Shown in pieces: positions 1 to 13,251 of a stretch of 19,305 nt of DNA (position 1 is the first letter of the stretch; each line of letters starts with the position of its first letter). A program made the position numbers and the translations under genes. The notes under the pieces were generated by a model. The model had not been told where the DNA came from, ran no database searches, and worked only from the letters and a program-made list of their open reading frames with translations. The stretch is from the IMG/VR virus record IMGVR_UViG_3300029828_000038, positions 1 to 19,305 of that record. One strand, given 5' to 3'. The stretch comes from a virus (Duplodnaviria > Heunggongvirae > Uroviricota > Caudoviricetes).

Positions 1-827
1 CCGGAAGTCTCTACCTGTTCTGTGGTCATCGCCTGGCATCTGATATCGAAATCATGATGCGTCAGCGCTTTAATGTGCTGAACCACATTATCTGGGCGAA
101 GCCGTCCGGACGCTGGAACGGATGCAACAAGGAAAGCCTGCGGGCGTATTTTCCGGCAACAGAACGCATTCTGTTTGCTGAACATTATCAGGGTCCATAC
201 CAGCCCAAAAATGACGGCTATGCGGCAAAGGGGCGCGAGCTAAAACAGCACGTCATGGCCCCGCTGATTTCTTACTTTCGTGATGCGCGTGAATCACTGG
301 GAATAACGTCAAAACAGATAGCGGAAGCCACCGGAAAGAAAAACATGGCTTCGCACTGGTTTGGTACCAGTCAGTGGCAGTTACCAAACGAGGGTGATTA
401 CAACAAATTGCAGGCGTTGTTTGCGCGTGTTGCGGCAGAAAAACATCAGCGCGGGGAACTGGAAAAGCCACACCACCAGCTGGTCAGCACATACAGTGAA
501 CTGAACCGGCAATATGCCAGCCTGCTGGAAGAGTACAAATCCCTGCGGCGTTATTTTTCCGTATCGGCAGCCGTTCCTTATACGGATGTCTGGACGCATA
601 AACCCGTGCAGTTTTATCCGGGCAAACATCCCTGTGAAAAACCGGCGGATATGCTCCGGCAAATAATCAATGCCAGCAGTCGCCCTGGTGATTTGGTTGC
701 TGATTTTTTTATGGGGTCTGGCTCAACAATAAAAGCGGCACTTTCACTGGGACGCCGTGCGATTGGCGTGGAACTGGAGGAAGAGAGATTTAATCAGACT
801 GTAAGTGAAATAAAAAATAATCGTTAA
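1..827 (+). CDS. DNA methyltransferase, N6-adenine/N4-cytosine (PF01555-like) family; 5' end lies outside the window
   Basis: Reading frame is open from window position 3 with no stop, through the track ORF 54..827. The protein carries HPCEKP (HPTQKP-like) followed by DLVADFFMGSGST (FxGxG AdoMet motif) and GRRAIGVELEE, the characteristic C-terminal half of this family. The DPPY-type motif would be upstream of the window. Confidence 0.75.
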   Translation, partial: GSLYLFCGHRLASDIEIMMRQRFNVLNHIIWAKPSGRWNGCNKESLRAYFPATERILFAEHYQGPYQPKNDGYAAKGRELKQHVMAPLISYFRDARESLGITSKQIAEATGKKNMASHWFGTSQWQLPNEGDYNKLQALFARVAAEKHQRGELEKPHHQLVSTYSELNRQYASLLEEYKSLRRYFSVSAAVPYTDVWTHKPVQFYPGKHPCEKPADMLRQIINASSRPGDLVADFFMGSGSTIKAALSLGRRAIGVELEEERFNQTVSEIKNNR

Positions 828-1426
828 ATACGGATAACATTATTTCTGAAATTAAGAAATAATAGAAATATATACATATGTTTACGAATATTAACGTGAA
901 TTTCCATTGAAAAGAGAACAGGCATCATTAGTATTAATTTGAGTTCCGAGGGTATACCCCGAAGAACCAGTGCCGACTTAGTTCAGCAATCAGAGCAGGT
1001 GGCTTGTAACATCAGGTCACCAGTTCGATTTCTCAGTCGGTACCGTATGCGGGTCGATTCCCGCTGTTCCAGAAGTAACGAGATAGGTAGTTTTGGGCGC
1101 TGGCACATTAAATATGTGGGATGTTTCACCCTCTCTCCTTACCGCATCCAGCCTGTAATGAAAGTTATTTGTTACGGTACCAGTGCCATCTTTTTACAAT
1201 AGCGGAATGGTGCATTATTGGTAGATATTTTGTATTTCATGGCAGGGTCGGTGATGCATCATTCCGGTGTTGTAAATAACACCGCCGGGGTGTTCCTCAG
1301 TGCGGGGGTGGTTCAAGAGTCGGTTTAGCGGGAAGCCACAGTATCCATACAGTATGGAGTACTTCGGGAGGCACCCGACGCCCTGGTTTTACTACAATAA
1401 AAATAACTTATCTTCTGCATTGACCA

Positions 1427-1452
1427 GCCGCCCCCACCGGGCGGTTTTTTTA
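1427..1452 (+). terminator. Intrinsic terminator-like hairpin plus T-tract
   Basis: Stem CCGCCC (1428-1433) / GGGCGG (1439-1444) with loop CCACC, followed by T7 (1445-1451). No coding sequence overlaps it. Confidence 0.55.
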
Positions 1453-1536
1453 TTCTGAATTCCCCAAAAAAAGAAAACACGGACACTGATAATGCCCGTG
1501 TGGCAATGCCATGTAAGTCAGCGATGAATATGGCGC

Positions 1537-1570
1537 AAAAAAAAAGCGCGGCTGTCGGATTAAAGCCGCG
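1537..1570 (-). terminator. Intrinsic terminator-like hairpin plus U-tract on the minus strand
   Basis: A9 at 1537-1545 on the + strand (U9 following the hairpin on the minus strand). Stem CGCGGCT (1547-1553) / AGCCGCG (1564-1570) with a 10-nt loop. Convergent with the + strand terminator at 1427..1452. Confidence 0.4.
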
Positions 1571-1829
1571 GGACAAAGTCCGTGAAGAAGAATAAGCATC
1601 GGTCTCCTCCAGGAGACGAGTTGATATTACTAAGCTTTAAAAATGGTTTAAATCCCCGTATTAACCTTAATTTCAGATAAGCTTTATTTCATTTCTTCGC
1701 GCCACGCCCGGCGCATATCAAAAAGCCACAGAGCCTTTCAGGGGTGAGCTTACGGGATGGTCAGTGTGACTTTCTCTGTGGGCTGGTCACCCCGGGGCGC
1801 AGGCTCACCCACTAAAAGGAAAAGTCACG

Positions 1830-2255
1830 ATGTTTGGTATTTTCAAAAAGAAAACCCGCAAGGCCATTACTGAAGTAAAGAAAATGGAGAACCGCGACGC
1901 AGTGGAGGCGACCGTCTGGGGTGCGTATTCCATCGCATTCGCCGACGACACCTGTGACGCGAAAGAAGTCGCGGTACTGGAGAAAACCATTGCAGCACTT
2001 CCTGCCTTTGCGCCGTTCTCCGGTGAGATTGCACAAATGAGTGCAAATATCCGCGCCCGTTATGAAGCGTCGCCGCGCTCTGCCAATGCTGAAGCCCTTC
2101 GTCAGCTGGCTGACGTGGCAGGTACTGATGACGCAGTTAATGTGCTGTGCCTGTGTCTGGATATCGCTGACCAGGATGGCATTGGTCCGGATGAAGAAGC
2201 ACAACTCAAGAAAATTGCTCAGGCACTGCAGTTGCCGCTGGAGCAGTACCTGTGA
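1830..2255 (+). CDS. TerB-like (tellurite-resistance TerB family) protein, phage cargo gene
   Basis: ATG at 1830 preceded by AAAGGAAAAG. The 141-aa product has the TerB-type acidic motif DIADQDGIGPDEEAQLKKIAQAL and predicted helical character. It sits between terminator-like hairpins, upstream of the lysis genes. Confidence 0.7.
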   Translation: MFGIFKKKTRKAITEVKKMENRDAVEATVWGAYSIAFADDTCDAKEVAVLEKTIAALPAFAPFSGEIAQMSANIRARYEASPRSANAEALRQLADVAGTDDAVNVLCLCLDIADQDGIGPDEEAQLKKIAQALQLPLEQYL

Positions 2256-2404
2256 AAAGTGCGCGCCTTGTGCTGGCTGCCATCCTGCTGTTTCTGGTAG
2301 TGGTGGTGGATTTCACCGGACGGCTGATGTCGGTGCTGGCAGATGGTGTGCTGGTGGCGATGGCGCTGGCCGTACTCCGGCCTTTACTGCGCAAATCTGA
2401 ATAA
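2252..2404 (+). CDS. Small hydrophobic two-helix membrane peptide (50 aa), translationally coupled to the TerB-like gene; not in the ORF track
   Basis: GTG at 2252-2254 overlaps the TerB stop TGA 2253-2255 (GTGA), with GGAG at 2240-2243 upstream. Hand translation: (M/V)KSARLVLAAILLFLVVVVDFTGRLMSVLADGVLVAMALAVLRPLLRKSE, stop TAA 2402-2404. Codons are CTG/GTG-rich. It falls below the apparent 60-aa cutoff of the track. Confidence 0.4.
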   Translation: MKSARLVLAAILLFLVVVVDFTGRLMSVLADGVLVAMALAVLRPLLRKSE

Positions 2405-4180: not shown

Positions 4181-4262
4181 GGTGCGGTAGTTACTGAGTA
4201 ACAGGCATTACAGCAGCCCTTCAGTGAGGGGCTGCGATAATGCCGGTATTAAGGAGATTCCA

Positions 4263-4613
4263 ATGCCATCACGAATCCCCCGCGCATGCCGTAAGCGAGG
4301 TTGCGCAGGCACGACAACAGACAGCTCTGGCTACTGCGATAAACATCGGGGTGAAGGCTGGGTGCAGCACCAGCGCGGACTGAGCCGCCACCAGCGTGGC
4401 TATGGCTCAAAATGGACGGTGATTCGAGCCCGTATTCTGAAGCGCGATAAAGGTCTGTGTCAGTTGTGTCTGCGTGTCGGTGTGGTGCGCGAGGCGAAAA
4501 CTGTCGACCACATCATCCCGAAAGCACATGGCGGAACAGATGCAGACAGCAACCTGCAGAGTCTGTGCTGGCCCTGCCACAAAGCGAAAACAGCGCGCGA
4601 ACGAATCAGGTGA
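4263..4613 (+). CDS. HNH endonuclease (packaging-associated, HK97 gp74-like position)
   Basis: ATG at 4263 with AAGGAG upstream. The product has Cys-rich zinc-finger-like CRKRGCAG...CDKH and the HNH core DHIIPKAHGG...N...CWPCHKAKT. It lies directly upstream of the terminase small subunit. Confidence 0.85.
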   Translation: MPSRIPRACRKRGCAGTTTDSSGYCDKHRGEGWVQHQRGLSRHQRGYGSKWTVIRARILKRDKGLCQLCLRVGVVREAKTVDHIIPKAHGGTDADSNLQSLCWPCHKAKTARERIR

Positions 4614-4760
4614 TAATTATTCTCACTTGTGGGGAGGGGCGGGTAAAATCCCTGCAGCCCTGGCTGCTCAGTACCGCCGCCTGACCTTTCCTCGCATCGC
4701 CGCAGGTTCGAAAACTTTTTTTTGGGAATGCGATCAAACGATTGATAGGTAAAACCGATT
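4614..4760. other. Candidate cos / packaging-initiation region between HNH endonuclease and terminase small subunit
   Basis: A 147-bp non-coding gap with G-rich GGGGAGGGGCGGG, the hairpin GCAGC-CCTG-GCTGC, the GC block CCGCCGCCTGACC and a T9 run. The position matches the cos site of HK97-like phages. The exact cut site cannot be determined. Confidence 0.3.
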
Positions 4761-5243
4761 ATGTCAGGACCCCCGAAAACCCCGCCACGCCTGCATTTGA
4801 TACGAGGCAACCCATCAAAGCGCCCCGTTAAAGACCCCAAAAAAACCGCTAAAAAGGACGAAAAAGGTCTCCCTAAAATTCCGCAACATTTAGGGGCGCA
4901 GGGGAAGTACTGGTTCAGGCGAATGGCGGAAGAACTGAATGCGGAAGGGATCATTTCTCAGCTTGATGCGCGTGCACTCGAGTTGCTGGTGGAAGCCTAC
5001 ACCGAATACCGGCATCACTGCGAAATACTCGATGTTGAGGGTTATACCTACCGCACGGAAACGCAGAACGGTGATGTGCTGATTAAGGCACACCCGGCTG
5101 CTGCGATGAAAGCGGATGCCTGGAAGCGGATCCGGGCGATGCTTGCAGAGTTTGGTATGTCACCGGCAAGCCGGGCGAAAGTAAATACCGCCGGACCGGA
5201 TGATGTTGATCCGCTGGCGGAACTTTTAAAAGCGAGAGACTGA
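4761..5243 (+). CDS. Terminase small subunit, P27 family
   Basis: 160-aa product with a basic N-terminus (PKTPPRLHLIRGNPSKRP...) and the P27-family core YWFRRMAEEL...LDARALELLVEAY...HPAAAMKADAWKRIRAMLAEFGMSPASRAK. Its stop overlaps the large-subunit start (TGATG). Confidence 0.85.
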   Translation: MSGPPKTPPRLHLIRGNPSKRPVKDPKKTAKKDEKGLPKIPQHLGAQGKYWFRRMAEELNAEGIISQLDARALELLVEAYTEYRHHCEILDVEGYTYRTETQNGDVLIKAHPAAAMKADAWKRIRAMLAEFGMSPASRAKVNTAGPDDVDPLAELLKARD

Positions 5244-7000
5244 TGGCAAAAGTGGCTGACGGGATCCGCTACGCCGAACGTGTTGTTGCAGGAGAAATTG
5301 TCGCTGGCGAATTTGTCCGTCTGGCCTGCCAGCGTTTTCTTGATGATCTGAAGTACGGCGAAGAGCGGGGGATTTATTTCAGTGAACCCCGTGCGCAGCA
5401 CATCCTGAATTTCTACAAATTTGTGCCCCATGTAAAAGGGGCGCTGGCAGGCCAGCCCATTGAACTGATGGACTGGCATGTATTTATTCTCATTAATATT
5501 TTTGGTTTTGTCATTCCGCTGGTCAATGAAGAGACCAGGGAAGTTGTTATGCGCAGCGATGGCAGCGGACGTCCGGTGATGGTGCGCCGGTTCCGGACGG
5601 CGTACAACGAAGTCGCCCGTAAAAACGCAAAATCAACCCTGTCATCGGGTATCGGTCTGTATATGACGGGGGCAGATGGTGAAGGCGGGGCTGAGGTGTA
5701 TTCAGCCGCAACCACGCGTGACCAGGCCAGAATCGTGTTTGAAGACGCCAAAAATATGGTCAGAAAAGCCCGGTCGACACTCGGGCGATTGTTTGATTTC
5801 AACAAGCTGGCGATTTACCAGGAGCAGAGCGCATCAAAATTTGAACCGCTTTCTTCGGATGCAAACAACCTGGATGGTCTGAACATCCACTGCGCCATTA
5901 TTGATGAGCTGCATGCACATAAAACCCGCGACGTGTGGGACGTTCTGGAAACGGCAACTGGTGCCCGTCTGCAGTCCCTGTTATTTGGTATCACCACGGC
6001 TGGCTTTAACAAGGAAGGGATTTGTTACGAGCAACGCGATTACGCCATCAAGGTATTGCGTGGCTATAACAGTGACGTGGAGGGCGCGGTAAAAGACGAC
6101 TCTTACTTTGCGATCATTTACACGCTCGATGAGGGAGATGATCCGTTTGATGAAACGGTCTGGCAGAAAGCGAATCCCGGCCTGGGCATCTGTAAACGCT
6201 GGGATGATTTGCGTCGTCTGGCGAAAAAAGCGAAGGAGCAGGTTTCTGCGCGGGTGAATTTTTTCACGAAACACATGAATGTGTGGGTCACTGCCGAATC
6301 TGCCTGGATGGACATGATTAAGTGGGAGAAGTGCGAATACATTGCTCCACAGCATGAGCTGAAAACATATCCCATGTGGGTCGGTGTAGACCTTGCTCAT
6401 AAGATTGATATCTGTGCGGCGGCAAAACTCTGGCGAACCGATAACGGACATGTTCATGCTGATTTTAAATTCTGGCTCCCGGAAGGACGGCTGGAGCGGT
6501 GCTCGCGGCAGCAGGCAGAACTTTACCGGAAATGGGCGGAGATGGATAAGCTCATCCTGACGGATGGTGATGTTATCGATCATGCTCAGATAAAAAGTGA
6601 CTTACTGGAATGGATTGGTGGTGAAAACCTGAGGGAGCTGGGATTTGACCCGTGGAGTGCAATGCAGTTCAGTCTGGCTCTGGCTGAAGAAGGGATACCG
6701 CTGGTGGAAGTTCCGCAGACGGTCCGCAATCTGTCAGAGGCTATGAAGGAAACGGAATCACTGGTCTATGCCGGGCGTTTTCACCACAGCAATCACCCGG
6801 TCATGAACTGGATGATGTCTAACGTTACGGTAAAACCGGACAAAAACGACAATATCTTCCCGAACAAATCCACGCCTGAAGCCAAAATCGACGGTCCTGT
6901 TGCGATGTTTACAGCAATGAGCCGGATGCTGGTCAATGGCGGTGAACCGGAGCCGGATCTGTCTGAGCATCTGGTCAGCGTTGGTATTCGCTCGCTTTAA
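5243..7000 (+). CDS. Terminase large subunit (Terminase_1-like)
   Basis: 585 aa, size and position typical. ATPase-like N-terminal region and nuclease-like C-terminal region by pattern. Coupled to the small subunit. Confidence 0.9.
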
Positions 7001-7194: not shown

Positions 7195-8435
7195 TGTTTT
7201 TCCAGGGGCTTTTTCAACGCAAAAATAACACCCCCGTCACAACGCCCGGGATGCTTGCGGAAGAGCTGGGGTTGTCATACGACACCTATACCGGAAAGCG
7301 GATCAGCAGCCAGCGGGCCATGCGGCTGACGGCGGTCTATTCCTGCGTCAGGGTGCTGGCTGAGTCTGTTGGTATGCTGCCCTGCAGTCTCTACAAAATC
7401 AGCGGCACCCTTAAAACACGGGCGGTGGATGAACGGCTGCATAAGCTGATTTCGGCAAAACCCAATGGCTACATGACGCCGCAGGAATTCTGGGAACTGG
7501 TTATCGTCTGCCTGTGTCTGCGGGGTAATTTTTACGCCTACAAGGTAAAGGCACTGGGGGAAGTGGTGGAGCTTCTTCCGATAGATCCGGGCTGTGTGGA
7601 ACCGAAGCTGAACAGCCAGTGGCAGCCGGTTTATCAGGTGACGTTTCCGGATGGTTCCGTGGATGTGCTGACCCAGAATGAAATCTGGCATGTGCGTACC
7701 CTGACGCTGGATGGACTTGTCGGTCTGAATCCCATTGCATATGCGCGCGAGGCCATTTCACTGGCAGCGGCAACCGAGGAGCATGGTGCCAGATTGTTTG
7801 GCAATGGCGCGGTAACATCCGGTGTGTTGCGTACGGATCAACAACTTTCTGACCAGGCTTATGCGCGTATCAAAAAGGATTTTGAGGAACGGCATGTCGG
7901 GCTGGGAAACTCTCATCGTCCGATGATTCTGGAAATGGGGCTGGACTGGAAAACGGTGGCACTGAATGCCGAGGACAGCCAGTTCCTGGAAACCCGCAAG
8001 TTTCAGCTGGAAGAAATCTGTCGCCTGTTCCGCGTGCCGCTGCATATGGTGCAGAACACCGATCGCGCCACCTTCAACAATATTGAAGAGCTGGGGCTTG
8101 GTTTCATTAACTATTCCCTTGTGCCGTATCTGACCCGTATTGAGCAGCGGATCAATACAGGGCTGGTCAGGGAGAGCAAGCAGGGAAAATTTTACGCCAA
8201 GTTTAATGCCGGAGCATTGTTGCGTGGCGACATGAAATCCCGCTTTGAAGCGTATGCCACGGGGATCAACTGGGGGATTTATTCCCCTAATGACTGCCGT
8301 GATCTGGAAGATATGAATCCCCGACCGGGCGGTGATGTGTATCTGACACCGATGAACATGACCACCAGTCCCTCTGCTGGCGATGACAACGGTAAGAAAA
8401 AGGAGAGTGGAGATGCAGACAAAACAGCGTCTTGA
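7194..8435 (+). CDS. Portal protein, HK97 family
   Basis: 413 aa, immediately downstream of terminase and upstream of the prohead protease. Sequence pattern typical of Phage_portal family. Confidence 0.9.
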   Translation: MFFQGLFQRKNNTPVTTPGMLAEELGLSYDTYTGKRISSQRAMRLTAVYSCVRVLAESVGMLPCSLYKISGTLKTRAVDERLHKLISAKPNGYMTPQEFWELVIVCLCLRGNFYAYKVKALGEVVELLPIDPGCVEPKLNSQWQPVYQVTFPDGSVDVLTQNEIWHVRTLTLDGLVGLNPIAYAREAISLAAATEEHGARLFGNGAVTSGVLRTDQQLSDQAYARIKKDFEERHVGLGNSHRPMILEMGLDWKTVALNAEDSQFLETRKFQLEEICRLFRVPLHMVQNTDRATFNNIEELGLGFINYSLVPYLTRIEQRINTGLVRESKQGKFYAKFNAGALLRGDMKSRFEAYATGINWGIYSPNDCRDLEDMNPRPGGDVYLTPMNMTTSPSAGDDNGKKKESGDADKTAS

Positions 8436-9063
8436 TATACCGCTGAACCTGAAATCCGTCAGTGATTCCGGGGAATTTGAAGGTTACGGTTCTGTTTTTG
8501 GTGTTAAGGACAGCCACGATGATGTGGTGGTCCCCGGAGCCTTTACCACAACACTCCAGAAATGGAGCGAAAAAAAGGCGCTGCCTGCGTTGCTCTGGCA
8601 GCACCGCATGGATGAGCCCATCGGTGTGTACACCGAAATGAAAGAAGATGATGTCGGGCTTTATGTCAGGGGACGATTACTCATTGATGATGATCCCCTG
8701 GCAAAACGTGCACATGCCCATATGAAGGCCGGTTCTTTAACCGGCCTTTCTATTGGCTACATCCTGAAAGACTGGGAGTACGACCGGGAAAAAGGGGTAT
8801 TCCTGCTGAAAGAGATCGACCTGTGGGAGGTCAGTCTGGTGACGTTTCCTTCCAATGATGAAGCACGCATCAGCGATGTGAAAAATGCGCTGGCGCGTGG
8901 GGAGATCCCTGATCAGAAAATTATTGAGCGGGTCCTGCGCGATGTTGGACTCTCGCGAACCCAGGCCAAAGCATTCATGGCCGGGGGATATGGCGCTTTA
9001 TCCCTGCGTGATGCTGAGGATGTGGATGCCGCACTGAATGCACTGAAAAATCTTAAATTTTAA
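8413..9063 (+). CDS. Prohead protease, HK97 family (peptidase S78/U35)
   Basis: ATG at 8413 with AAGGAGAGTGGAG upstream. Chosen over the track start 8383, which has no RBS. Conserved region GYGSVFGVKDSHDDVVVPGAF and position between portal and capsid. Confidence 0.85.
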   Translation: MQTKQRLDIPLNLKSVSDSGEFEGYGSVFGVKDSHDDVVVPGAFTTTLQKWSEKKALPALLWQHRMDEPIGVYTEMKEDDVGLYVRGRLLIDDDPLAKRAHAHMKAGSLTGLSIGYILKDWEYDREKGVFLLKEIDLWEVSLVTFPSNDEARISDVKNALARGEIPDQKIIERVLRDVGLSRTQAKAFMAGGYGALSLRDAEDVDAALNALKNLKF

Positions 9064-9076
9064 TCAGGAGTAAATA

Positions 9077-10303
9077 ATGGCTGTTGATATTAAAGACGTT
9101 GAACAGGTCGCGCAGGATTTGCAGCAGAAGTTTGACGATTTTAAGGCAAAAAACGACAAGCGCATTGACGCGATCGAACAGGAAAAAGGCAAGCTGGCCG
9201 AACAGGTGGAAAGCCTGAACGGGCAAATCAGCGAGCTGGAGAACCTGAAAAGCGACCTGGAAAAAGAGCTGGCAGACATCAAGCGTCCGGCAGGCGGCAC
9301 GCAAAATAAAGTTGCCGGTGAACACAAAGAAGCGTTTATCGGATTTATGCGCAAGGGGCGTGAAGACGGTCTGCGTGAACTTGAACGTAAGGCGCTTCAG
9401 GTAGGTAATGATGAAGATGGTGGTTATGCCATTCCGGAAGAACTGGATCGTACCATCCTGACGCTACTGAAAGATGAGGTGGTGATGCGCCAGGAAGCCA
9501 CTGTGATCACCCTCGGTGGCTCGGATTATAAAAAACTGGTGAATCTGGGCGGCACAACGTCCGGATGGGTGGGGGAAACGGATGCTCGTCCGGAAACCGC
9601 CACCTCAAAACTGGGTCTGATTGAACCCTTTATGGGGGAAATCTACGGCAACCCGCAGGCCACCCAGAAAATGCTCGATGATGCTTTCTTCAATGTGGAA
9701 GACTGGATCAACAGTGAGCTGGCGCTGGAATTTGCCGAGCAGGAAGAAATTGCCTTTACCAGTGGCGACGGCAGCAAAAAACCAAAAGGTTTTCTGGCTT
9801 ACGAGTCCACCGATGAAGATGACAAGACCCGTGCGTTTGGCAAACTTCAGCACATTGCTTCCGGTGCGGCTTCCGGCGTGACTGCCGATGCGATCATTAA
9901 ACTGATTTACACCCTGCGCAAGGCGCACCGCAGCGGCGCGAAGTTTATGATGAACAACAGCAGCCTGTTTGCCATTCGTCTGCTGAAGGATAACGACGGA
10001 AATTATCTGTGGCGTCCGGGTATTGAGCTGGGTCAGCCTTCTTCTCTGGCAGGGTATGGCATCGTTGAGAATGAACAGATGCCGGATATTGCTGCCGATG
10101 CAAAAGCCATTGCGTTTGGTAACTTCAAACGTGGCTATACCATCGTTGATCGCATCGGTACCCGTATCCTGCGCGATCCGTACACCAATAAACCGTTTGT
10201 GGGTTTTTACACCACCAAGCGAACCGGCGGTATGCTGGTGGATTCTCAGGCGATTAAGCTGATGAAAATTGGGGCCGCAACCCGCCAGAAAGCCGCTGCG
10301 TAA
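9077..10303 (+). CDS. Major capsid protein, HK97 family, with N-terminal coiled-coil delta (scaffold) domain
   Basis: ATG at 9077 with AGGAG upstream. 408 aa. The N-terminal ~100 aa is a coiled-coil (KFDDFKAKNDKRIDAIEQEKGKLAEQVESLNGQISELENLKSDLEKELADIK), followed by a capsid-fold region. Confidence 0.9.
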   Translation: MAVDIKDVEQVAQDLQQKFDDFKAKNDKRIDAIEQEKGKLAEQVESLNGQISELENLKSDLEKELADIKRPAGGTQNKVAGEHKEAFIGFMRKGREDGLRELERKALQVGNDEDGGYAIPEELDRTILTLLKDEVVMRQEATVITLGGSDYKKLVNLGGTTSGWVGETDARPETATSKLGLIEPFMGEIYGNPQATQKMLDDAFFNVEDWINSELALEFAEQEEIAFTSGDGSKKPKGFLAYESTDEDDKTRAFGKLQHIASGAASGVTADAIIKLIYTLRKAHRSGAKFMMNNSSLFAIRLLKDNDGNYLWRPGIELGQPSSLAGYGIVENEQMPDIAADAKAIAFGNFKRGYTIVDRIGTRILRDPYTNKPFVGFYTTKRTGGMLVDSQAIKLMKIGAATRQKAAA

Positions 10304-12577: not shown

Positions 12578-12949
12578 ATGACTAAAAATATCCGCAATCT
12601 GGCACTGGCAACGATGTCGGGGTTTCGCCATAAAACTGTTGATGTGCCTGAATGGGAAGGGGCAACGGTTGTATTACGGGAACCTTCTGCAGAAGCCTGG
12701 TTGCGCTGGCAGGAGATCGTTAAAGCAAAAGATGATGAGACACCGTTATCCGTTGCGGAGCGCGCCCGCCGAAATCTGGAGGCAGATGTTGAACTGTTCA
12801 TTGATGTTCTGTGTGATACCGGACTGCAACCTGTATTTTCAGAGGATGATCGTGAACAGGTGATTGCCGTGTATGGCCCGGTGCATGCGCGGCTTCTTCG
12901 GCAGTCTCTGGAACTGATCAGTGATGCCGGCGAGGTTAAAAAAAAGTAG
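12578..12949 (+). CDS. Tail assembly chaperone (lambda gpG equivalent)
   Basis: ATG at 12578 with GAGGATAGATGTG upstream; the alternative start is ATG 12563, coupled as TAATG. The ORF ends ...GEVKKK then TAG 12947-12949, immediately after the slippery heptamer. Confidence 0.75.
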   Translation: MTKNIRNLALATMSGFRHKTVDVPEWEGATVVLREPSAEAWLRWQEIVKAKDDETPLSVAERARRNLEADVELFIDVLCDTGLQPVFSEDDREQVIAVYGPVHARLLRQSLELISDAGEVKKK

Positions 12950-13251
12950 AGCTTCCGGGGATGCGTTTTCTGATGATGCTGGCGCTCAGGATGGGGCGCA
13001 CATTGTCAGAGTTACGCCGGGAAATGTCCGCATCAGAAATCATGATGTGGGCAGAATTTGACAGGTACAGCCCGCTGGGTGACGAGCGGGCTGATATCCG
13101 GGCTGCCCAGATAGTTTCTGCGGTTTACGGTGCGCAGGGTGTCAAAGTCCCACTGAATGATGCGCTTCTTCAGTGGGAACAAGAGCAGACAGAAGGCGTC
13201 TCAGATCCATTTGCCGGACTGGAAAACGCGCTTTTAATAGTGTCTCAGTGA
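12578..13251 (+). CDS. Tail assembly chaperone frameshift fusion product (lambda gpGT equivalent), made by a -1 shift at 12940-12946
   Basis: Frame relationship verified by hand: G is in frame 2 and the downstream ORF (track 12961..13251) is in frame 1. The fusion would read ...GEVKKK-VELPGMRFLMML... to the stop at 13249-13251. Position between major tail and tape measure matches the conserved G/GT arrangement. Confidence 0.6.
12940..12946 (+). other. Slippery heptamer A AAA AAG for -1 programmed ribosomal frameshift (G to GT)
   Basis: In the G frame the codons are AAA (12941) AAG (12944) TAG (12947). The -1 frame has a stop at 12937-12939 and is open from 12940 (AAA AAA GTA GAG CTT CCG GGG ATG...) into the downstream ORF ending 13251. 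Confidence 0.65.

Follow-up and report, generated by a model that had tools for sequence, protein, structure and literature searches.

The gap between the HNH and small terminase genes

The window, i.e., the whole 19,305-nt stretch of viral DNA analysed here, contains a short non-coding gap between an HNH endonuclease gene and the gene of a small terminase subunit (terS). The gap measures 147 bp (4614-4760), from the HNH stop codon (TGA at 4611-4613) to the terS start codon (ATG at 4761), and the coordinates given for it in the original prediction were right. The genes concerned and the elements that we distinguish between them are listed below in window coordinates.

4263..4613, + strand: HNH endonuclease gene, 116 aa (PF01844, E = 1.9e-16; phrog_144)
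4611..4625: dyad TGATAAT-T-ATTCTCA (TGATAATTATTCTCA), overlapping the HNH stop codon
4631..4650: G-block GGGGAGGGGCGGGTAAAATC, conserved left-flank element of the putative cos
4651..4674: 24-bp spacer, conserved in length and not in sequence, ending in a conserved AC (4673-4674)
4675-4684, + strand: predicted cohesive end CGCCGCCTGA, cosN core, aligned to the HK97, SfI and phiP27 ends
4685..4723, + strand: right-flank conserved block CCTTTCCTCGCATCGCCGCAGGTTCGAAAAC-T8, with the T8 at +32..+39 (4716-4723)
4735..4747, - strand: perfect IHF consensus TATCAATCGTTTG (WATCAANNNNTTR), 3' of the conserved block
4761..5243, + strand: small terminase gene, P27 family (PF05119, E = 1.9e-25; phrog_83)
5243..7000, + strand: large terminase gene, ATPase and nuclease (PF03354 and PF20441)

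The HNH protein is 79% identical to SfV orf53 and 34% identical to HK97 gp74, of which it is the putative counterpart, i.e., an accessory nuclease for cos cleavage. The large terminase (TerL) is related to HK97 gp2 (29% identity over 455 aa, E = 5e-41, BLASTP) and shares 38% identity with TerL of phiP27 and 87% with that of Fraca. The small terminase (TerS) is 72% identical to Fraca TerS, and BLASTP found no similarity between it and HK97 gp1; structural comparison of TerS was not discriminating. Downstream of terL follow genes for an HK97-family portal, an S78 prohead protease and an HK97-type capsid, and none of the packaging and head genes of the window is truncated, their domain matches being full-length as well. 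The HK97-like packaging context on which the original prediction had relied is thus present from the HNH gene through to the capsid.

Kala et al. 2014 reportedly described the same gene arrangement for HK97-like, HNH-assisted cos packaging. The order seen in the window is also that of the systems in which such packaging has been studied (PMC9410871, PMC11331095), and in HK97, the only phage for which the requirement is known, the HNH protein is needed for cos cleavage (PMC9410871, PMC11331095). An HNH/terS junction heading a packaging and morphogenesis operon and a TerL of the HK97 clade (by PF03354, PF20441 and BLASTP to gp2) are both marks of an HK97-type cos, and the window has both.

Alignment with mapped and annotated cohesive ends

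The DNA of HK97 ends in 10-nt 3' overhangs (PMC9410871, PMC11331095). Its record ends with ...GGGGGGGGGATCAAATC, followed by 24 nt ending in GAC and by CGCCGCCAAA, and starts with GTTTGAATTTAACGCTAACCCGATTTTTTT. Because the published TerS-site coordinates (T16, C:G at 21, A-tract 24-29) fit the numbering of the record, we read the latter as the physical top strand. HK97 and the window share one layout, comprising the HNH side, a G-rich block, 24 bp, (G/T)AC followed by CGCCGCC..., and a terS-side flank with a T tract, and the HK97 10-mer CGCCGCCAAA is identical to the window 10-mer CGCCGCCTGA at 7/10 positions. In contrast, HK97 TerS belongs to phrog_5601 without a Pfam hit, whereas that of the window belongs to PF05119/phrog_83; the right flanks are unrelated, with the T tract at +24..+30 in HK97 and at +32..+39 in the window. 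From the end of the HNH gene there are 319 bp to the genome end in HK97, as opposed to 61 bp to the 10-mer in the window.

The Stx2e phage phiP27 is 95% identical across window positions 4200-4681 (megablast), and the 10-mer CGCCCGCCCC, annotated there as misc_feature 'cos-site' (AJ298298, 21806-21815), aligns to 4675-4684. PhiP27 has in common with the window the HNH gene and the entire left flank to the 10-mer, the methylase and lysis genes and the Pfam family of TerS. The homology ends inside the 10-mer, at 4681; the phiP27 right flank differs, its TerS is 20% identical to that of the window, and the window is without the stx2e and tRNA genes of phiP27.

Run-off sequencing of SfI virion DNA gave a 10-nt gap, TGCCCGCCCC, relative to the prophage, from which the cos of SfV differs by one base (PMC3636060). 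The SfI record ends with TGCCCGCCCC and its first 50 nt lead to terS; a gap present in both run-off reads would fit a 3' overhang. SfI and SfV resemble the window in the G-block, its spacing, the flanking GAC and an HNH protein with 79% identity, and differ from it at 5/10 positions of the 10-mer and in a right flank of the phiP27 type. The TerS proteins of phiP27 and SfV are 49% identical and their right flanks share TTTTT(A/T)(C/T)ACCCGCGAAA. The SfV GenBank record (U82619.2) starts 7 nt 5' of the TGCCCGCCCC 10-mer, so that its start is not a mapped terminus.

Anchored on the 10-mer, the window, HK97, phiP27, SfV and SfI all have a G-block ending in ...(A/C)AAATC, an identical distance of 24 bp from this block to the 10-mer, and (G/T)AC directly 5' of the 10-mer. 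The homology to experimentally defined ends that characterises an HK97-type cos thus falls at the same aligned position. Because the HK97 record end, the SfI run-off 10-mer and the phiP27 cos all align to 4675-4684, and because the G-block lies exactly 24 bp upstream in all three reference cos sites, we predict a 10-nt 3' overhang, probably produced by nicks at 4684/4685 in the top strand and at 4674/4675 in the bottom strand. The original prediction had held that the exact cleavage site cannot be called and had proposed alignment to HK97-like cos regions as a check. That alignment returned the same columns and the same 24-bp spacing in HK97, SfI/SfV and phiP27, and such homology now allows the cut to be predicted to the base. 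Likewise, the two GC-rich blocks singled out earlier go beyond chance and align to mapped cos sites: no 13-mer of the 19.3-kb window other than GGGGAGGGGCGGG (4631-4643) has 11 or more G or C, and CCGCCGCCTGACC (4674-4686) is a C-rich block spanning the predicted cohesive end.

Gene context and homology to mapped or annotated cos sites thus bear out the proposal of a probable cos site. With a probability of about 0.85, we take the gap to be the cos of an HK97/P27-like E. coli prophage whose cos packaging depends on HNH. As such, it is of a known kind, an ordinary, widespread and expected part of a prophage of this type.

The cos of lambda (cosQ-cosN-cosB) follows a similar logic, with a nick site, a TerS-side binding region and an upstream element; its IHF site lies between cosN and the TerS sites, and the gap has a perfect IHF consensus 3' of the conserved block. 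Unlike the cos predicted here, lambda has a 12-nt 5' overhang, a Nu1-type TerS and no HNH gene. The combination of Nu1 TerS, R-site cosB and no HNH gene that defines the lambda type does not occur in the window, and no direct repeats of the R-site kind were found in the gap. Within the lambda overhang GGGCGGCGACCT lies, in reverse complement, the CGCCGCC heptamer common to the window and HK97 cos. Relative to terS, this heptamer has the opposite orientation to window 4675-4681, and the resemblance, for which only the lambda end sequence was compared, may be a coincidence. HNH-dependent cos packaging also occurs in S. aureus phi12/phiSLT and the satellite SaPIbov5, according to the citation of Quiles-Puchalt 2014 in PMC6739421. 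On the basis of the literature, phi12/phiSLT have the same order of HNH, cos, terS and terL in a host of a different phylum.

We also inspected record ends and junctions in relatives. At the start of the Fraca record (LR597645.1), 124-127 nt from within terL (1843-1969) are present a second time, joined via a 3-nt microhomology to CCTCTTTTCAC..., which corresponds to +1 to +3 of the predicted left end. Its other end reads through cos, giving a 63-nt terminal redundancy across cos (1-187, 43602-43664). The junction resembles a chimera created in assembly where the DNA physically ends and, as circumstantial evidence, fits a blunt-ended virion terminus after loss of the 3' overhang. The Evi record (LR597642.1, ~12770-13000) is without the whole cos core, from the G-block to CATCGCCGCAGGTT; its place is taken by an inverted duplicate of the terS 5' portion, which abuts the T run and probably reflects misassembly at the genome ends. 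The record of the Providencia phage PSTRCR_117lys (MW358929.1) starts with GGTTAGAAAAC and ends with ...GGGCGGGTAAAATCCCTACCACTCTCGCC; at its circular junction ~40 nt present in relatives are missing, 10-mer included, whether through a genuine deletion or because the sequence collapsed at cos. We discarded this record end as uninterpretable, and that of mEp235 as uninformative because the record was linearised at the terS ATG. Among ~200 contigs with the block from IMG/VR and metagenomes, we found none that has an end at the predicted nick. Most of them are assemblies of prophages or of read-through sequence, which makes them uninformative on virion ends. A full-text literature search for the cos 10-mers returned unrelated primer sequences only.

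Conserved elements on either side of the predicted nick core

Conservation was assessed with 80 IMG/VR loci retrieved by the terS protein at no less than 96% aa identity, to which pattern scans added IMG/VR and metagenome loci; the 14-mer CATCGCCGCAGGTT was the search pattern and is invariant by construction in the pattern-scan sets. Profiles of 107 and 178 distinct sequences show conservation of the G-block, AC followed by CGCC, and a right flank reading CC..T..TC.CATCGCCGCAGGTT.GAAAAC and then T7-9. Identity between the window and the Fraca class amounts to 80% in the G-block, 27% in the spacer, 92% in AC plus 10-mer and 85% in the right flank, as against 71% in terS coding DNA. Since these identities, the spacer aside, are above that of terS, the non-coding blocks are more constrained than the neighbouring gene.

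On the left side, the G-block ends exactly 24 bp 5' of the 10-mer in the Fraca class and mEp235 as well as in the five sequences aligned above, and its offset to the 10-mer is fixed in 88/107 distinct relatives. Homology to PhiR49_2 and to IMG/VR loci without HNH begins exactly at the G-block, a candidate cosQ-like or nuclease-positioning site as judged from sequence. The first 22 nt of the spacer (4651-4672) match the Fraca class at 6/22 positions, as opposed to 80-92% in the flanking blocks. The short hairpin pointed out in the original prediction does exist (GCAGCC-CT-GGCTGC, 4654-4667), but it lies within this non-conserved segment (27% identical to the Fraca class) and carries no weight. 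The G-block and the C-rich core also contain a pair of sequences, GGGGCGGG/CCCGCCCC, whose complementarity is seen in phiP27 and SfV and is degenerate in the window. We dropped this inverted repeat as a general feature, given that it is absent in HK97 and was not returned by a repeat search of the gap.

With up to 2 mismatches allowed, TGATAATNATTATCA has a single match in the window, the dyad at 4611-4625, which deviates from it at one position (chance expectation 0.07 matches). The dyad fits the 7-1-7 Fur-box motif at 13/14 positions, the sole such match in the window. A loose form of it, TGAnAnnnnnTnnCA, is located 5' of the G-block in 144/178 distinct family sequences (81%), among them HK97 and a PICI-like element, where it is not at a gene end. 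The dyad is a possible outer left cos element.

On the right side, the T run counted as T9 in the original prediction is actually a T8 tract at 4716-4723. The block that it terminates matches mEp235, which a blastn search had returned independently, and also the Fraca class at 33/39 positions, compared with 71% nucleotide identity in the adjacent terS. It is kept in PICI-like elements without terS and is wholly different in phiP27, SfV and HK97, phages with a TerS that either is unrelated to that of the window or shares 20% identity with it. In HK97, the minimal TerS site spans +15..+29 and depends on an A-tract (PMC9410871, PMC11331095). By analogy with this A-tract site, the right block (4685-4723) is likely the binding site of the small terminase and a candidate cosB-like element. 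The window has no perfect IHF consensus other than that at 4735-4747(-), against 0.64 expected over its full length. This site, located 3' of the T8 tract and 5' of the terS ribosome-binding site, is kept in 20 of the 27 distinct right flanks that belong to the window's class and in 0/20 of the Fraca class, and might be a DNA-bending site, as its sequence suggests. At the corresponding position, the Fraca class has a GGGGTCCCC palindrome.

The two sides of the core differ in their distribution. The left flank with HNH, G-block and cut site is common to HK97, phiP27 and SfV, and the right flank tracks the TerS family, being unrelated to that of the window in HK97, of its own type in phiP27 and the same as the window's in Fraca. 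This is the pattern that would be expected if the G-block and nick core served TerL and HNH, and the right flank TerS. As a natural swap, the same left flank and nick core next to unrelated TerS proteins and right flanks could serve to tell nuclease elements (TerL and HNH) from TerS elements. So far, only the TerS site has been biochemically defined in HK97-type systems, and a cosQ-like function, which the left module may have, has not been described for these phages.

By analogy with HK97, a small terminase ring would bind the right module on concatemeric DNA and thereby position or stall the large terminase on the 10-nt core. TerL, aided by the HNH protein encoded just upstream, would then nick the top strand at 4684/4685 and the bottom strand at 4674/4675, and the staggered nicks would leave 10-nt 3' cohesive ends. 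Packaging would run rightward, with the terS side entering first, and would stop at the next cos.

Copies in PICI-like elements, alternative readings and distribution

The block from the dyad/G-block through the T tract is also found in PICI-like elements without HNH, terS or terL. In L105 it occupies positions 2115-2280 of an element whose genes (integrase, DUF927 primase-like, two PerC, ProQ/FinO and DUF1441) constitute a PICI-like set; L117 has it as well, and L223, a food-metagenome contig, contains two inverted cos blocks 1.4 kb apart (8300-10010). The block moreover persists in IMG/VR loci that have a different gene in place of HNH. The copying of helper-phage cos sites by satellites is documented (PMC6092414, PMC6739421), SaPIbov5-type satellites being an example, and L105, L117 and L223 carry the cos block of the window. 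Because elements without terminase genes retain the block in the way that satellites copy helper cos sites, it appears to be a packaging signal. The three elements may be satellites of HNH-cos helper phages. If so, they would represent a satellite lineage parasitising HNH-cos helpers such as this prophage, whereas characterised E. coli PICIs use lambda/phi80-type cos. We also considered the DUF1441 protein of the PICI-like element as an Rpp-type packaging redirector, an idea left unsupported since the protein has no sequence match in the PDB. On a tentative reading, to which we give less than even odds, the cos block might be a two-module signal, with a left module for HNH/TerL recognition or positioning (the dyad, the G-block and its constant 24-bp distance to the nick), common to phages of HK97-, P27- and SfV-type packaging, and a right module specific to the TerS family, that has been captured whole by terminase-less E. 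coli PICI-like satellites.

Several other readings of the gap should be weighed against a functional cos cut at the predicted positions. That the gap is a cos region with true nicks or an overhang other than predicted, e.g., in length, in polarity or displaced by some bases, is unlikely, although the core is not uniform. Its 3' part varies among relatives (TGA, TAA, TAG, CAA, AAA, CCC), and next to essentially the same terS we found CGCCGCCTGA in the majority along with CGCCGCCTAA, CGCCGCCTAG, CGCCCGCCAA and CGCCCGCCTA, with an internal 1-nt indel separating CGCC-GCCTGA from CGCCCGCCAA. A shift would also agree with the SfV record start 7 nt left of the 10-mer, with the 3-nt ambiguity of the Fraca junction, and with an HK97 overhang stated as both 10 nt and 12 nt within one paper. 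However, the HK97 record ends, the SfI run-off and the phiP27 annotation are three independent references that fall on identical columns with identical flank spacing. Alternatively, the site could be a relic, a true homologue in a defective prophage that is left uncleaved in this host except by a co-resident helper. The cryptic state is common among E. coli prophages, the window is part of a prophage only, and other DNA has taken the place of the phiP27 stx/tRNA segment. This reading is nevertheless quite improbable considering that the packaging and head genes are full-length, that the conserved cos blocks are all intact and of the majority variant (85/151 loci), and that phages obtained as virions, e.g., phi467 and the vB_Eco series, have near-identical modules.

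Readings in which the gap is not a cos at all fare worse. Transcriptional control alone, by a terminator after the lysis/HNH genes or a promoter of the head operon, might be suggested by the T8 run 3' of a weak A/T stem and by one promoter-like match at 4620-4649 (9/12). Yet no terminator in the gap passed the terminator scan, promoter-like matches are at chance level (2 found, 1.4 expected), and the gap folds no better than shuffled sequence (z = -1.38). A control region would also leave the fixed-spacing homology to mapped ends and the retention of the block by satellites unexplained, and we regard it as very improbable. A search of the gap for Rfam families gave no match, and small ORFs crossing it have no family support, so that we rejected a small-ORF reading too. 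Pac sites adjoining TerS exist in other phage families, and the gap could in principle house such a recognition site for headful packaging. We find this hardly credible, as a TerL of HK97 type and an adjacent HNH gene speak against pac, and the close relatives have defined cohesive ends, with SfI explicitly contrasted with the pac phages Sf6 and SfX. An HNH-dependent cos remains our preferred reading.

The cos block is present in 942/5,426 complete E. coli genomes (~17%), where the copies bear no annotation other than 'HNH endonuclease | phage terminase small subunit P27 family'. For a module this common, the alignment would supply a base-level prediction of virion ends, of use in prophage annotation, genome orientation, the interpretation of PhageTerm results and cosmid- or transduction-type tools. 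The satellite copies further point to candidate helper-satellite pairs. Beyond this, the added value is modest, consisting of a clear two-module architecture and the satellite copies.

Outside the gap, the region with the methylase, lysis cassette and HNH (window 780-2310) is 90-93% identical to the Stx2e phage phiP27. The phiP27 segment with tRNA-Ile, tRNA-Arg and stx2eAB is replaced in the window by unrelated DNA without tRNA genes, and this replacement DNA encodes a 141-aa ORF (1830-2255) with a weak TerB-domain match.
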